Shown here in pieces: positions 11,842-40,184 of a stretch of 64,000 nucleotides of DNA (position 1 is the stretch's first letter; the number at the start of each line of letters is the position of its first letter). Below the pieces are notes generated by a model that did not search any database, had not been told where the DNA came from, and saw only the letters and a list, made by a program, of their open reading frames with translations. The translations under genes were made by a program, and so were the position numbers. This stretch comes from Nitrosopumilus sp. (lineage in GTDB: Archaea; Thermoproteota; Nitrososphaeria; Nitrososphaerales; Nitrosopumilaceae), in assembly GCA_965214775.1 (NCBI GenBank), contig OZ243974.1:96001-160000 (forward strand). Direction: 5' to 3'.

Positions 11842-12528
11842 ATGCCACATGTTTCGGTCTATGTTGATGAGTCAGGAGATGCTAGATTTGCTAACAAGGC
11901 CTCGCAATTTTTTACCATTGGTTATGCATTTACGGTGGATGGATCACCGGCAAAAGAGAACGAGACAGTAAAGCGTGCTTTGAAAAACATCAACGCTGGG
12001 AGCAAAGTGAAAATTTCCGAGTTTAAATTTTCAGCAAATACTGATAGGATCAGAAAGAAGTTCCTAAAGACCATCAACAGGCTGGATGTCGAGCTGGGGG
12101 TTTTATGCGCCAGCAAGGACTCGGTGAAGCCAGACATCAGGGAAGATCCCTATGGATTTTACATACATGCTACAGTAGACACAATAGCTACCCATTTGGT
12201 TGAGGATTGTATCCAAGCACATGAACATGACAATTCGATTAGATTTACCATAGACAAAAGTCTGGCAAAGAATGCGAGAGACTCATTCAACGAATACTGC
12301 AAGAATAAAATTCATGATAAAATGAGGCAAAAAAATTTGAAGGCAGATCTTATTCCGAATATTTACCATGAGGATTCAAGAAGCGTGCCCATGCTTCAGG
12401 TTGCAGATTACATTGCAAGCGCAACCCAGAGATTCGTCGTTCATGGCGATGCGACGTTTTACAACGCGTACAGTAGCAAATTGAAATATCGTGAAAAATG
12501 GGACTGCAACAATAGAATAAAATGGTGA
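11842..12528 (+). CDS. DUF3800 family protein (predicted RNase H-like nuclease fold)
   Basis: N-terminal VYVDESGD, SEFKFS and C-terminal LQVADYIA motifs. Confidence 0.85.
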   Translation: MPHVSVYVDESGDARFANKASQFFTIGYAFTVDGSPAKENETVKRALKNINAGSKVKISEFKFSANTDRIRKKFLKTINRLDVELGVLCASKDSVKPDIREDPYGFYIHATVDTIATHLVEDCIQAHEHDNSIRFTIDKSLAKNARDSFNEYCKNKIHDKMRQKNLKADLIPNIYHEDSRSVPMLQVADYIASATQRFVVHGDATFYNAYSSKLKYREKWDCNNRIKW

Positions 12529-12529
12529 C

Positions 12530-12604
12530 TCTTGACCTACTTCTCTCCTATCTGTCCGAACAGACGTCATTGTTTCGGTCAAGATCCTATTGATTGCTCA
12601 ATAG
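12530..12604 (+). ncRNA. Candidate DUF3800-associated structured RNA
   Basis: Outer stem TCTTGACC/GGTCAAGA, inner hairpin TCTGT-CCGA-ACAGA, alternative CCGAA/TTCGG pairing, then hairpin CTATTGA-TTGC-TCAATAG; begins right after the stop codon. Confidence 0.45.
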
Positions 12605-12659
12605 ACTTTACCCACCTGATTATTATTGTCACATATCATATTAAAAGTATAGTATGAGG

Positions 12660-36293: not shown

Positions 36294-36632
36294 AGTATTC
36301 CCAAAAGTAACCTAAAAATGGCTCCAAATTCAAAACAGAACAAATCCGGTCATCAGCAGATTGACACGCCATCGCCTGTACCGTCACGAGTCTGGTTACA
36401 TCGGGGGAGGCTGATCCCAAGTAGCAGCTAAAGCTCTGGAATCCATTCCTGATTTTAGACAGGAATTCTGTGTGAACTGTCATTTTTGGTGGCAAAATCC
36501 GTGTGCAAGCTTTCAGAGATGTTGTCAAAAATTCCCTGATGGGCAGTCTATTGATGGTCGTGTTCAGCACAAAGGGTAGCCTGCGGCAGACTCCTTTGAC
36601 AATATGGGATACCGCATACCGCAGCTGTCAAT

Positions 36633-36712
36633 AGACTTTATGCGTAATTGGTTCAGATCTAGGATTATTACGAACAAATTCGTCTCATTCAGATCGATTA
36701 CGCATAAAGTCT
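36633..36712. mobile_element. MITE family E copy
   Basis: AGACTTTATGCGTAAT TIR; TSD AAT. Confidence 0.88.
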
Positions 36713-36742
36713 AATGAGTGCGTTCAGCACAAAGGGTAGCCT

Positions 36743-36979
36743 GAGAGATGATCCGAGATCAGAAACTGCAAATGCCGTGATTTTTCAGCACATCTTTCAA
36801 GTAATTTCATGAATCATGTACATTTTGCCGGCACTTGGATCGGTTTGGCATACATTGTGCCCATCAGACTTTGTGCGTAATCGGCACAAATCAGAAAAAT
36901 CAGGCAGTTTTTACGCCATTTTTGGCAAATACACATATGATCTATTTGATCATAGTTTGCTAATTTCGAATCAACTCTC
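36743..36979. mobile_element. MITE family D copy with a nested family E variant (36866-36943)
   Basis: GAGAGATGATCCGAGAT ... ATTTCGAATCAACTCTC ends. Confidence 0.75.
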
Positions 36980-37271
36980 AGTAAAACTAGTAGAAAAGAG
37001 TGAAGCTTAATCCATGAACAACAATGTGTCTCAATGTAATTGACAGGCAAATCTTGGAAAAAATGTCCAACAGGTTAGGTTTGCCAACAAGATTGGAATC
37101 ATACCAGCTCCAAAGAAAGCTCAGGATACTGGGAATTGACATGTCTGCTTAAGATATTAGCGAAATTATCAACACCATAAAACCTGTAATTAAAGATACA
37201 GTTCTGTGGTTCTGTGTAAGATTGGTGACCTAGAATGCGGATATTCTCTGAATTGAGATTTTATTTTATGC

Positions 37272-38393
37272 CTAGACAGAATACTTGCTTAGCGAGGCAT
37301 TCTGGATGATGGTCTTCCACTTGTTGATGCCGTCCACGACAATCAAGGATGCCTCCGCAGGCGTCTTTCCCTCCAGGCTTCCGTGCTTTTTGGTGTAATT
37401 GTAGTAGACCCTCATTCCGTCAAGTATGGCCGTATCCATCTTCTTGAGGCCCCTGAACACCTTCTCGCGGTCTCTGATCTCGCCGTTGAGCCTCTCCATC
37501 CTGTTGTTGTTGTCCCGGTCTCTTTTTCCTGCCAGGTGGATATGTCTTACGTGATTCGTACCCTTTCCGAATACCCTCCTTGAGGACTTGGCATATGCCG
37601 GCAGGCCGTCCGTGATGAAGTTTCTGGGGCTTTTTCCGGTATGTGATTTTGTCAGTTGTAATAGACTGTCCGCATTGTGCTGGAACTTGTTGTCTGCCAG
37701 GTCGGAGGCCAGCCAGTAGCGCGTATCGTCATCCATCGAGGCGAATAGATAGCACTGCCTGCCGCTGATTTTCACCCATACCTCGTCGGCCCGGAACCAG
37801 CTGCCGACCCGTGGAACGATTCCGTTGAGGTATGTCGATGTCATCCTGGAATAGTCTCTAACCCAGTTGTATACCGTCTTGTGGCTTACACTGATTCCAA
37901 GCATCTCGTAATGGTTGGAGATGTCACGGACGCTCATCCCCGTATAATACATCTGCAACGCGCCCGTTATGATGGATTCGTCAAACCTCCTGTTTTCGAA
38001 TCCAAAGTTTGCAGTAAACCTTCTCTTACAGTCTTTACACTTGAACATCTGCATTGTAGAGCTTTTGTTCTTCTTTAATCCCTTCCTGACGATGTTGCCA
38101 GAATCGCAGAACTTGCACAGGTTAAGCCTTGACCTTTCAATGATTCTAAACCCGTCGTGTCCGAACACGTTTCTTCTGACATACTCCAGTATTACCTTGA
38201 TGTGCTTGCAGTCCGATTTTCTGCTCCGGTGGTCCGGACACTCACAGACAAGCCCGCTGCCCGTCCTAGATACGGTATAGAACTTGGATGGATCTGACTG
38301 GGATCTGACCCTGAAATCATTCGTACCAATGATCTGGGTGGCGTGACCCGGAGTCTCCATGATCTGTTTTGCACGTCGGTCTCTTGCGTTCAT
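37272..38393 (-). CDS. IS6-family DDE transposase with N-terminal SWIM and zinc-ribbon domains
   Basis: CECPD...CKH (SWIM), CKFC..CKDC, HTH VSHKTVYNWV, RADEVWV, ITDGLPAY and NNNRMERLN; Shine-Dalgarno GAGGAGG. Confidence 0.93.
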   Translation of the reverse strand: MNARDRRAKQIMETPGHATQIIGTNDFRVRSQSDPSKFYTVSRTGSGLVCECPDHRSRKSDCKHIKVILEYVRRNVFGHDGFRIIERSRLNLCKFCDSGNIVRKGLKKNKSSTMQMFKCKDCKRRFTANFGFENRRFDESIITGALQMYYTGMSVRDISNHYEMLGISVSHKTVYNWVRDYSRMTSTYLNGIVPRVGSWFRADEVWVKISGRQCYLFASMDDDTRYWLASDLADNKFQHNADSLLQLTKSHTGKSPRNFITDGLPAYAKSSRRVFGKGTNHVRHIHLAGKRDRDNNNRMERLNGEIRDREKVFRGLKKMDTAILDGMRVYYNYTKKHGSLEGKTPAEASLIVVDGINKWKTIIQNASLSKYSV

Positions 38394-38434
38394 TCACATC
38401 CCTCCTCGAAAACTAATATAGAACAAAAAAGATG

Positions 38435-38519
38435 CGGTGGGTGTGGGATTCGAACCCACGAAGGCTTTCCACCTTGCAGGTCATAAGCCTGCCACTCTAA
38501 CCGACTAAGTGAACCCACC
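38435..38519 (-). tRNA. Atypical class II tRNA with a UAU anticodon and G73
   Basis: GGTGGGT/ACCCACC acceptor, D-arm ACTT/GAGT, GCAGG-CTTATGA-CCTGC, variable arm AAGGT-GGAAA-GCCTT, GTGGG-TTCGAAT-CCCAC. Confidence 0.9.
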
Positions 38520-38530
38520 ATGCATTATAT

Positions 38531-38572
38531 TATACGTACGTTTATTTATACCTAGCTCTTATACGTACGTAT
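38531..38572. promoter_or_regulatory. Divergent promoter region with two palindromic TACGTACG operators
   Basis: TATACGTACGTT (38531-38542) and the perfect palindrome ATACGTACGTAT (38561-38572) flank minus-strand TATAAATA (38543-38550). Confidence 0.65.
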
Positions 38573-38589
38573 GGTTTTTATACATCTTC

Positions 38590-38766
38590 ATGGTATACGA
38601 CATATTGACGCGATGGAAAAAGAACGAAACCGAGTTTTCCGTAAAACTCTCGTTTGATGGAAGAAACAGCATGTCATGCAGGATACCGAAACCCATTCTG
38701 GAAATGCTCGGTGAACCAGAGTCCATCACGTTCCGAATCAAAAACAACAGGATTGTGGTGGATTGA
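38590..38766 (+). CDS. AbrB/MazE/SpoVT-like small DNA-binding protein
   Basis: 58 aa; VKL......CRIPKPILEMLG....ITFRIKNNRIVV swapped-hairpin pattern. Confidence 0.7.
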   Translation: MVYDILTRWKKNETEFSVKLSFDGRNSMSCRIPKPILEMLGEPESITFRIKNNRIVVD

Positions 38767-38816
38767 TATGAGCGCCGAAACCACTAACCCACCCCCCGGA
38801 TGGAAAAACCGAATCA

Positions 38817-39398
38817 TCATGCCCTGGTCCATTCTATATGTCCGTTTACACCATGTTTGTCATAGGTTTTCAAAATATCGTCACAGAACTTGGCCAATGC
38901 GTAATCGTTGACCTTTTTTGATCTGGCCAGTAGGTTAACAAACAATTTTTTTGCGGTTTCCGTCTGGTTGTAGTTTTTCTTTTTGAAGTTGTGTGCCGCG
39001 CACAATACCTGCCCGTTTTCCACCGTTGACTCCCCACCCTTGTCTCTGGGTTTTATGTGATCGATATGCAGCTTTACACCGTCTCTTTCGCCCTTGCCAC
39101 AAACAACGCATTTGTGTTGGTCTCGTTCCAAGATTTCTGCCTTCTGTTTTGACGTGAAATTTTGCAATTTTATTGCGTCCTGTGGGTTGTAGCGGTAAAC
39201 TCCGGTGTTTACCTTGGTCAGAACACCTTCCTGGTGCAGGCTTCTTATCTGTCTATCCGGATCACGGAATACCCTGCCTGTACGCTCGTTATATTCTGAG
39301 ACTGCCCAGTCCACAATCTCCGGATGTTTTATGCTGCGATTCGGGTTGTTCCTGTAATACTCCAGGATTACGTCACGCTGGGTAACCGTGTCTGACAC
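38817..39398 (-). CDS. HNH endonuclease (putative type II restriction enzyme)
   Basis: ILERDQHKCVVCG...HIDHIKP..KGG....NGQVLC..HN; overlaps the MTase 3' end. Confidence 0.9.
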   Translation of the reverse strand: MSDTVTQRDVILEYYRNNPNRSIKHPEIVDWAVSEYNERTGRVFRDPDRQIRSLHQEGVLTKVNTGVYRYNPQDAIKLQNFTSKQKAEILERDQHKCVVCGKGERDGVKLHIDHIKPRDKGGESTVENGQVLCAAHNFKKKNYNQTETAKKLFVNLLARSKKVNDYALAKFCDDILKTYDKHGVNGHIEWTRA

Positions 39399-40184
39399 AC
39401 CTCCTTTTCTATTCGCTTTTCTGCAAGGCTGTAATACTCGTCAACTAGTTCTATCCCCACCGACCTGCGGCCGTTTTTCATGGAGGCAACTATTGTCGTG
39501 CCGGAACCGGCAAACGGGTCAAGTATGACGTCATCAACATATGAAAACAGCTTGATGCATCTTTCTGGCAGTTCCTCCGGAAACGGCGCCGGATGCCCGT
39601 TCTTTTTTGCACCTGGAAACGTCCACATGCCGTTTGTCCATTCGATGAACTCGTTCCTTTCGATTGTACTTATTCCTCTGCGGTCACGTTTCCACTCGTC
39701 CTTGTAAAGTACGATTATGGCCTCAACAGGTGCTATCACATGCGGTGCAGAAGCCGACAGCCACGATCCCCATGCCGTCCTCCTTGATATGTTGCCCTCG
39801 TTCCAGACTATTGTTGCATGGTATTTCCATCCTGCATCAAGAGCTATCTTTGTCAGGTCGGCACATGTGGGCCTCTTTCCCTGCTTGTTCTTGTCCAGAC
39901 CAATGTTAAGACAGAATCTGCCCGTTGAACGTGTCCAATGAAGTACATTACTAATCCATTTTTCTGAGAATTTCAGGTATCTCTCATAGGATATGCTGTC
40001 ATTGCACCCCCCCCCCACCTTCATAATCAAGGCCTACGTTGTAGGGAGGTGATGTCACGGTAAGATCTACTGAATTGTTTCGAATTGTCGATTTTTTGGT
40101 CGTATCCCCTCTGACTAGCCTGTATTCAGGTTTCTCCACAAAACCCTTTTTGGTTTGTGTTTTTTTAATCCTTGGCTTTGTCAA
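39368..40184 (-). pseudogene. Beta-class amino (m6A/m4C) DNA methyltransferase frameshifted in a G10 tract
   Basis: TSPPYN in ORF 39999-40184; HPAPFP and DPFAGSGTT in ORF 39368-40030; removing one G at 40007-40016 fuses the frames. Confidence 0.9.

Follow-up and report, generated by a model that had tools for sequence, protein, structure and literature searches.

A class II tRNA gene with a UAU anticodon, associated with an IS6-like insertion sequence in Nitrosopumilus

Results

Structure of the tRNA gene

The window analysed here is a stretch of 64,000 nucleotides from Nitrosopumilus sp. (positions 96,001 to 160,000 of contig OZ243974.1, GenBank assembly GCA_965214775.1), being part of a single contig of 2,833,656 bp with 47.1% G+C. 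It holds a class II tRNA gene with the anticodon UAU, flanked by the co-oriented transposase gene of an IS6-like insertion sequence (IS) on one side and by a divergent gene for a small protein on the other (Table 1). This copy (locus A) is accompanied in the same genome by a second one at genome 597064-597149 (locus or copy B), and a third class II tRNA of the host with G73 (#53, genome 2472569-2472654) carries the anticodon CAG.

The gene is a true class II tRNA gene that is constrained in its structure. On the minus strand, ARAGORN places a tRNA(tat) at 38434-38519 and Rfam RF00005 matches 38435-38519 with 59 bits (gathering score 29, E 3.3e-10), which places it among the tRNAs, while the 85-nt RNA folds with a z-score of -3.97 and none of 200 shuffles folded equally well. 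The acceptor stem has 7 bp (GGUGGGU/ACCCACC) and is followed by U8, the D stem has 4 bp (ACUU/GAGU) and a 9-nt loop (AGUCGGUUA), the anticodon stem has 5 bp (GCAGG/CCUGC) and the loop C-U-UAU-G-A, the variable stem has 5 bp (AAGGU/GCCUU) with a 5-nt loop (GGAAA) and a single C 3' of the arm, and the T stem has 5 bp (GUGGG/CCCAC) with the loop UUCGAAU, the discriminator being G73. Besides U8, the tertiary or otherwise conserved bases A14, G18G19, G15/C48 and U33 are present. ARAGORN, Rfam and the folding score thus confirm the fully paired 7/5 cloverleaf with G73, a long arm, a TATA box and a T6 tract that a preliminary description of this DNA had reported, to which the strand (minus) can now be added.

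The preliminary description had also raised the concern that UAU might be a read error for UAA or UAG. Since copy B and a copy in another genus (G452) also carry UAU, the anticodon is no such error. Contigs from three other data sets, one of which may be the assembly's own source, span the anticodon, and among the matches listed there is no difference inside the tRNA.

Table 1. Features at locus A (positions in the window)
Feature	Position	Strand	Remarks
Class II tRNA, anticodon UAU (38483-38485), G37, G73, no encoded CCA	38435..38519	-	85 nt; 95.2 bits on family model R1
TATA box TATAAATA	38543..38550	-	24-31 nt 5' of the mature end; kept in copy B; TATA-like elements at the equivalent place in other members
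T6 tract, archaeal terminator-type signal	38425..38430	-	starts 5 nt past the tRNA 3' end; T5 in copy B, T6 in G452
Two copies of TTATACGTACGT (ACGTACGTATAA repeats) bracketing the TATA box, candidate operators	38530-38541 and 38559-38570		in the 70-nt divergent promoter region
Small protein gene, 58 aa (P0001), predicted AbrB/MazE/SpoVT-like dimer	38590..38766	+	divergent from the tRNA
End of the block common to locus B	38767..38801		homology stops at ~38801
GTTCTATATTAG, matching the IS right end imperfectly in inverted orientation (12 of the 15 first positions by eye)	38413..38424	-	from aligned IS copies A-D; holds the TATA-like CTATATTA for the transposase
IS6-like DDE transposase, 373 aa, N-terminal zinc-finger region	37272..38393	-	begins 41 nt past the tRNA; GGAGG 8 nt before the ATG
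IS right end, ...CACAGAACC, outermost base 37208	37208..37271	-	copies A, C and D agree to here; B ends with the same 9-mer

The tRNA family and its distribution

The family to which the UAU tRNA belongs consists of class II tRNAs with G73; it is accessory and sporadic in its occurrence and, among the genomes searched, confined to one archaeal family. A covariance model of the tRNA family (R1), built from six relatives (alignment A1), was searched against 151 genomes of the same taxonomic family; the best loci were read with ARAGORN, and one locus (G342) was added via its neighbour gene. The genome sets used here and below are samples and not censuses, and absence holds for the genomes searched. 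In this way 19 intact members were found in 10 genomes, with true members scoring 64.8-104 bits on R1 (canonical tRNA-Ser ~68 bits). G73, the long arm and the 7/5 branch are common to all 19, and the body carries seven different anticodons: UAU three times (loci A and B; G452), GAU three times (G362, G440, G183), GAA four times (G452, twice in G493, G183), UAA four times (twice each in G255 and G493), CAG twice (#53 of the host; G342), GAG twice (G166, G238) and CGG once (G493). Position 35 is an A in 18 of the 19 members, and therefore NUN codons (those of Ile, Leu and Phe) would be read. The anticodon loop has 7 nt and a purine at position 37 throughout, as well as U33 in all members but two (L092, L122). 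Relative to locus A, the tRNA of copy B shows four substitutions and one indel, all of which preserve the structure (U:G to C:G in the D stem, and changes in the variable arm), and the UAU copy of G452 differs at two positions, together a compensatory change from G4:C69 to A4:U69.

No member was found outside the family in 151 genomes sampled across the order (127 of them outside the family), the one borderline hit being an ordinary tRNA-Ser(GCU). A DNA search of 40 relatives with the tRNA and its upstream block returned generic T-arm matches only, except for the region of the small open reading frame (ORF) in G021. A metagenome scan for the D and anticodon arms of the UAU subfamily, with the anticodon left free, gave no match. 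A looser metagenome pattern gave at least 119 stretches, of which 80 (L261-L340) were scored with R1; none of these exceeded 68.7 bits and none was a new member. The 3'-end pattern of the UAU subfamily was uninformative, being shared, among the matches listed, with ordinary bacterial tRNAs, mostly of Actinomycetes.

Some related remains were seen as well. At genome 2239000-2239060 (plus strand), ~1.7 kb downstream of one of the isoleucyl-tRNA synthetase (IleRS) genes, lie the last 27 nt of a UAU tRNA with a degraded spacer and the inverted repeat, but without a transposase. An IS copy of G021 that carries no tRNA between its two genes is accompanied, 82 nt past its small ORF, by a class I tRNA-like gene of 77 nt that has decayed (L002, 1831-1907, minus strand; anticodon CAG, G3:U70, A73, mismatches in both the D stem and the anticodon stem). 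The host further contains two odd class II tRNA-like genes with G73, one at genome 1744619-1744714 (minus strand; anticodon UAG, 96 nt, Rfam 46.8 bits) and one at genome 1015320-1015418 (plus strand; anticodon CAG, acceptor mismatches, a 10-bp variable stem, 35.7 bits), the latter with an inverted fragment of the IS6-like transposase of locus A ~90 nt away; neither gave an R1 match at E 0.001.

Selection on the fold and type of body

The cloverleaf of the family is under selection. Standard pairs occupy 98.7% of the cells of alignment A1, and 12 of its 26 pairs, distributed across all five helices, show double-sided changes, which was equalled in none of 500 column shuffles (a count that is not a probability, because the six sequences are related). 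When the 3' partners were slid by 1-3 columns as a control, 36-48% of the cells were paired; it is these slid controls and the double changes in every helix that are convincing. The 5-bp anticodon stem takes part in this, with two covarying pairs. Between loci A and B the tRNA changed at ~5% of its sites, the adjoining small ORF having a synonymous divergence (dS) of 0.20, and the bases of the tertiary interactions and the promoters are kept in members from different genera. Both the selection on the stems that had been proposed and the covariation among homologs that had been named beforehand as a check are hereby borne out.

For the type of body, a Ser model (R2, from six canonical Ser tRNAs) and a Leu model (R3, from three canonical Leu tRNAs) were used, which are small and serve as stand-ins for the tRNAscan-SE isotype models. 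The Ser model outscored the Leu model in 17 of the 19 members (57-74 bits on R2 for the family); for the UAU tRNAs the respective values were 66.3 and 46.7 bits (locus A), 60.9 and 50.2 bits (B) and 64.8 and 43.4 bits (G452). As controls, true Ser tRNAs gave 95-107 bits on R2 and true Leu tRNAs 110-112 bits on R3. On the family model R1, the canonical Ser tRNAs of the host scored 68.3, 64.1, 59.5 and 55.1 bits and its Leu tRNAs 58.7, 54.6, 50.0 and 45 bits. The UAU tRNA thus has the long variable arm and G73 of a canonical tRNA-Ser, but not a Ser-like score on the Ser covariance model, and it has none of the combination found in canonical tRNA-Leu (A73, a 3-bp D stem with an 11-nt loop, a variable loop ending in ..AG). 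Typical of tRNA-Ile is a class I body with A73 and A37. With its class II body, G73 and G37, and with an acceptor (GGUGGGU) unlike that of the Ile2-like CAU tRNA of the host (GGGCCCG), the UAU tRNA departs from this, in line with the earlier statement that it is not Ile-like. In all, the family is a third class II lineage; its leaning to Ser comes from G73, from the D stem of 4 bp with its loop of 9-10 nt and from the small number of unpaired bases 3' of the variable arm.

The small partner protein and the promoter repeats

The product of the divergent gene (58-62 aa in its family) has no sequence-profile match in Pfam, NCBIfam or the PDB. Its AlphaFold model (36-row alignment) has a pLDDT of 81.9, and in Foldseek the top three rows are MazE (best probability 0.96, E 0.37, TMq 0.62), followed by rows that include C56 and C68 of Sulfolobus plasmid-viruses, VapB and AbrB; no row reaches E 0.001. 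In an all-against-all VIA-align comparison 11 chains had a Z of at least 2, nearly all of them bearing names of the AbrB/SpoVT/MazE/VapB type, the best being SpoVT (Z 3.9, rmsd 1.5 over 40 residues). Because the absolute scores are low, as expected for 45 residues, the assignment to the AbrB type rests on the consistency of these matches. As a homodimer the protein scored 0.58, against 0.00 for the best control, with the runs agreeing on at least 98% of the contacts and a pLDDT of at least 71; the mark applied is reached by 20 of 30 solved homodimers and by one of 23 single chains, and the pass of the small protein may reflect likeness to solved AbrB/MazE dimers. Judging by these models, the small protein is predicted to be a dimeric, AbrB/MazE/SpoVT-like DNA-binding protein.

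The arrangement of repeats on both sides of the TATA box recurs elsewhere with different repeats, i.e. GCATACGGATA in L120, CTGTTAA in L088, CCGTGCTG in L092 and GTTAATGA in #53. Such lineage-specific, TATA-bracketing repeats (five loci) look like operators of a co-evolving DNA-binding protein. As to a type II toxin-antitoxin system, no adjacent gene for a protein toxin was found: at locus A, the tRNA, the transposase and an HNH gene make up the neighbourhood, and neither PIN nor MazF gave a match.

The insertion-sequence setting

The transposase matches Pfam DDE_Tnp_IS240 with 54 bits (cut-off 27, E 2.3e-14) and NCBIfam transpos_IS6 with 123.2 bits, just under the cut-off of 125. At the right end, contigs of two other data sets (X1 and X5) diverge just before 37208, and in the transposase-only copies C and D the homology begins at GTTCTATATTAG or nearer to the ATG. 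The block shared by loci A and B is sharply bounded, with identities of 91.8% in the small-ORF region, 95.3% in the tRNA, 90.2% in the spacer and 80.4% in the transposase. The ratio of nonsynonymous to synonymous change (omega) between A and B is 0.13 for the small ORF and 0.14 for the transposase, i.e. both are under purifying selection, while the dS of 0.20 for the small ORF versus 0.81 for the transposase indicates a mosaic history.

Across the order, the transposase family occurs in 139 of 301 genomes, and 27 of the 29 fetched loci have no tRNA nearby. The small ORF occurs in 73 of 401 genomes, often in multiple copies. The small ORF stands divergently beside the transposase at 8 of 29 transposase loci and 18 of 29 small-ORF loci (each of these sets taking in one locus from the unpublished genome G289). 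In G002 (L124-L128), a 1,694-bp unit is repeated with ~99.5% identity, in which both genes lie between ~60-bp inverted repeats starting with GGTTCTCCTGC (GGTTCT...), with 9-bp target duplications at the flanks; the small ORF is present in that genome at least six times in identical form. Of the five stretches that were fetched, one has only the 424-bp left part in common. In L026, GGTTCTGT inverted termini likewise enclose both genes. Since the repeats enclose both genes in G002 and L026, the small ORF is an IS gene and the slot of the tRNA lies in the interior of the complete element.

At loci A and B themselves, no GGTTCT terminus was found beyond the small ORF and no target-site duplication was seen, the repeats and 9-bp duplications around both genes being clean only in the distant G002. 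Searches for inverted repeats at 13 relatives' loci told little in most cases, since these repeats are short and rich in AT, and L026 alone was convincing; G017 has one full copy only and therefore did not define the IS ends. At A and B, either the left end has been rearranged or a shorter IS has recombined into place. The earlier description of the tRNA as transposon-borne is accordingly largely upheld, by the linkage to the transposase and by the IS slot in relatives.

Between this genome and G452, the tRNA and what follows it, up to ~530 nt into the transposase, are 98.1% identical, as opposed to 48% for the small ORFs, which means that tRNA and transposase move together. Over the whole tRNA family, the small ORF is divergently adjacent to the tRNA in 9 of the 19 members, and a co-oriented transposase follows downstream in 10 (IS6-like in five, IS1595-type in three, DDE_Tnp_1 in two). 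Seven of these transposases lie 39-51 nt away, one 94 nt (measured to the first residue aligned) and two ~310-590 nt.

As for the surroundings, just past the IS right end (36624-36982) lies a cluster of ~70-90-bp repeats, each type of which recurs at dozens of genome sites with 75-99% identity, resembling miniature inverted-repeat transposable elements. Directly upstream of the IS block (38817-40030, minus strand) a gene for an HNH endonuclease (193 aa) overlaps the end of a gene for an N6/N4 DNA methylase (220 aa); the two are probably a restriction-modification pair, the methylase ORF looking N-terminally short. Elsewhere in the window, a DUF3800-X RNA (RF02984) matches at 12523-12617 (minus strand) with 49.4 bits (gathering score 38.2).

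The host decoding set

The host is an archaeon with intron-containing tRNAs and reads AUA in the usual archaeal way, as had been presumed: TiaS is present as an intact 439-aa frame (TiaS_FLD, 128 bits) and a tRNA-Ile2-like CAU gene lies at genome 379103-379178. All four Ser tRNAs were found, and of the Leu tRNAs four were called directly and a fifth, tRNA-Leu(UAA), was located separately at ~genome 1565150-1565270 (minus strand), having been missed by ARAGORN because of its two introns (in the D arm and the anticodon arm). A canonical tRNA-Leu(UAA) beside tRNA-Thr(GGU) was also seen in the relative G226 (L031). There is one seryl-tRNA synthetase (SerRS), one leucyl-tRNA synthetase (LeuRS) and no orphan synthetase. 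Given this complete set (TiaS, tRNA-Ile2(CAU) and all Leu and Ser tRNAs), the UAU tRNA is supernumerary.

The UAU tRNA does not stand in for a missing tRNA-Leu(UAA), whose canonical two-intron gene is present, nor is it required for want of the TiaS/tRNA-Ile2(CAU) route, both parts of which are present; it does not supply codons for the genes of the IS either, AUA making up three of the 373 transposase codons. The host has two intact IleRS genes, at genome 2233982-2237260 (L018:983-4261, plus strand) and 1984516-1987893 (L135:517-3894, minus strand), whose products are 88% identical (960 of 1091 residues) and score ~665 bits each on the ileS equivalog model. That this pair serves the UAU tRNA was rejected, because each of the five other holders of the tRNA family tested (G452, G440, G362, G183, G493) has a single IleRS. 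Two initiator-type tRNA(CAU) genes were noted as well, one adjoining the TiaS gene (genome 1971579-1971654, plus strand) and one with an odd anticodon loop, UUCAUUG (genome 727225-727299, plus strand).

Discussion

The reading that is put forward here, with a probability of about one half, is that of a regulated, IS-borne tRNA that is charged regardless of its anticodon, most likely with serine, and that decodes AUA at a low level. The tRNA would be transcribed from its own TATA promoter, the repeats around the TATA box probably being bound by the neighbouring AbrB/MazE-like dimer, by which expression would probably be repressed or tuned. The transcript would mature to a normal, L-shaped tRNA, to be charged by an anticodon-blind synthetase that reads the long arm and G73, most probably SerRS and less probably LeuRS. 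The determinants of SerRS are G73 and a long variable arm, and G73 is an anti-determinant for LeuRS, which is why serine charging would be the most likely; archaeal LeuRS, as reported from work on Haloferax and Pyrococcus, needs A73 and the ..AG tip of the variable loop. Once expressed, the UAU tRNA would bring serine to AUA codons at a low level. UAU itself would be one state of a drifting anticodon rather than the mark of a purpose-built AUA reader, and the benefit to the IS may lie in addiction, in a stress-induced change of the proteome or in simple hitch-hiking.

The AUA-specific roles that the preliminary description had suggested (an Ile-to-Ser mistranslating toxin, or a modification-independent AUA reader that rescues translation) lose force because the same body carries six other anticodons, among them GAU, GAA, UAA, CAG and GAG. 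The homologs, in which random anticodons or decayed stems had been named as speaking against a function, show a mixed picture: the anticodons do vary, but A35 is held in all members but one and the stems are intact.

A number of points weigh against charging with serine and low-level decoding of AUA. Of the Ser-like body described earlier, the preference of locus A for R2 over R3 stands, but its 66.3 bits on R2 are below the range of true Ser tRNAs and level with canonical Leu tRNAs (62-66 bits on R2). The T arm and the three bases preceding it are those of tRNA-Leu, identical over 20 nt, and the restriction to A35 is unexpected for a Ser-charged tRNA and agrees more readily with charging by Leu or a recent origin from Leu tRNAs. 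G37 instead of A37 is unusual for a reader of a codon starting with A, so that decoding may be poor, and two of the GAU members carry C33. AUA is common in the host (19.6 per 1000 codons in long ORFs), and efficient insertion of Ser would therefore be harmful. In addition, there are decayed copies (G442 (L093), the 3' fragment at genome 2239000-2239060 and the tRNA-like gene of G021), and a role in cis is suggested by the transposases, from three IS families, that share the orientation of the tRNA.

Such a role in cis is the main alternative, though an unlikely one. Read-through from the strong, compact tRNA promoter would drive the transposase, the T tract would keep this low and RNase P and tRNase Z would release a defined mRNA, as a result of which carriers would be more active and spread. 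The preliminary description had considered the tRNA as a processing signal for the transposase mRNA, and that idea gains from the 10 members that are followed by a transposase on the same strand (from three unrelated IS families), from the 98.1% identity between two genera of the tRNA and the 5' half of the transposase (the small ORF being at 48%), and from the GGAGG inside the 41-nt spacer. What it leaves unexplained is the conserved anticodon arm: RNase P and tRNase Z require the acceptor/T domain only, while in this family the D arm and the anticodon arm covary and the canonical 7-nt loop is kept. Moreover, the spacer has its own TATA-like box in the inverted repeat, a T5-T6 terminator separates tRNA and transposase, nine of the 19 members have no downstream transposase, and transposase-only copies (C, D and most relatives) manage without any tRNA.

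Charging with leucine would instead make the family a nearly harmless decoder, akin to the nev-tRNAs of nematodes, that descends from tRNA-Leu, is still leucylated and places Leu at Ile, Phe and Leu codons, a conservative and tolerated change. It would explain why the anticodons are those for Ile, Leu and Phe, considering that A35 is kept in 18 of the 19 members and a single step separates each non-Leu anticodon from a Leu one; G37 and the loop CUUAxGA match the host Leu tRNAs, as does the 20-nt T-arm region, and nev-tRNA-Ile(UAU) offers a precedent (PMC3333845). This is nevertheless unlikely: G73 occurs in 19 of the 19 members as opposed to A73 in all Leu tRNAs of the host, locus A scores 46.7 bits on the Leu model where true Leu tRNAs score 110-112, and the variable-loop tips (GGAAA, UGAC, UCGCC, GCCC) lack the ..AG tip that all host Leu tRNAs have. 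That the tRNA is an inert hitch-hiker, i.e. a captured tRNA gene or a preferred landing site of the IS that owes its conservation to recent copying or gene conversion, would suit the sporadic, multi-copy distribution, the decayed copies, the free change at anticodon positions 34 and 36 and the mosaic recombination (a dS of 0.20 in the small ORF but 0.81 in the transposase). It is improbable all the same, since compensatory double changes in 12 of 26 pairs extend across lineages with small ORFs that are only ~50% identical, which recent copying does not produce, and the tertiary bases and promoters are kept across genera. Highly improbable, finally, is a true isoleucine tRNA that reads AUA independently of modification and backs up the TiaS-dependent tRNA-Ile2. 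The UAU anticodon and the two intact IleRS genes (88% identical) may suggest it, but the class II body with G73 and G37, the acceptor unlike that of the Ile2-like tRNA, the sister tRNAs that carry Phe and Leu anticodons on the same body, the single IleRS in five other holders tested and the scarcity of AUA in the IS transposase (3/373 codons) all contradict it.

A further step beyond serine charging under the control of the small protein would be that the two together form an IS-borne switch or toxin-antitoxin-like module, although this is rather unlikely. The small protein would repress the promoter via the TATA-bracketing repeats, and upon a lapse of repression (by loss of the element, stress or infection) the Ser-charged tRNA would misread Ile, Leu or Phe codons, leading to arrest, death or diversity of the proteome. 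If so, a mistranslating tRNA would act as the toxin, with the variable anticodon as its evolving specificity. More generally, tRNAs in which body and anticodon do not match are rare natural experiments in rewriting the genetic code, and the defined setting found here (an IS, a predicted regulator and operator-like repeats) makes the purpose of such mismatched tRNAs testable. Annotation by the anticodon alone, as tRNA-Ile, tRNA-Leu or tRNA-Phe, is probably wrong for this family and could mislead inferences on AUA decoding in archaea.

Among known systems, bacterial allo-tRNAs, reportedly described by Mukai et al. in 2017, come to mind. In the literature looked through, no archaeal or IS-borne case and no tRNA passenger in an IS6-type element was found, though 7/5 or archaeal cases could be among the supplementary lists of Mukai et al. 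2017; nor is the family described where the tRNAscan-SE 2.0 paper deals with Thaumarchaeota or variable arms (PMC8450103). The canonical archaeal tRNA-Ser, the best host isotype on R1, shares with the family G73, the 4-bp D stem with a 9-10-nt loop, the long arm and few unpaired 3' bases, but its variable arm has 4 bp with GCAA, whereas that of the family has 5 bp and a 4-5-nt loop, and the anticodon is another. Like members of the IS6 family, the element has the catalytic domain DDE_Tnp_IS240, occurs in multiple full or partial copies per genome and has short inverted repeats at its ends, which are imperfect at this copy; unlike them, it has a long N-terminal zinc-finger extension on the transposase, a second, divergent small gene in complete relatives and, in some copies, a tRNA between the genes. 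With proteins of the AbrB/MazE/VapB types (including C56 and C68 of the Sulfolobus plasmid-viruses) the small protein would have in common its predicted swapped-hairpin fold and intertwined dimer, its small size, its place on mobile DNA and a divergent promoter, whereas it has no C-terminal toxin-binding tail and is neighboured by a tRNA or transposase.

Allo-tRNAs have Ser identity and 35 anticodons, of which UAU forms the most abundant group, with a suspected link to transposons or toxin-antitoxin systems, and are defined by a 12-bp acceptor branch of the 8/4 or 9/3 type (PMC7609411). They resemble the present family in the long variable arm, in Ser-type features combined with a non-Ser anticodon that varies among relatives, and in the sporadic spread; they differ in being bacterial and 8/4 or 9/3, whereas the archaeal family is 7/5, keeps A35 in 18 of 19 members, and has a defined gene partner (the AbrB-like small protein) as well as a defined location within an IS. 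The nev-tRNAs of nematodes (Hamashima et al. 2012, PMC3333845) are weakly expressed 7/5 class II tRNAs; their anticodons are UAU or CCC, and they are charged with Leu, nev-tRNA-Ile(UAU) included. They share with the archaeal family the 7/5 class II body, an anticodon that matches neither Leu nor Ser and the status of an extra to the normal set; they are eukaryotic, derived from tRNA-Leu and not reported as transposon-borne, whereas the archaeal family has G73 and a low score on the Leu model. By analogy, the family would be the archaeal 7/5 counterpart of both the bacterial allo-tRNAs and the nematode nev-tRNAs.

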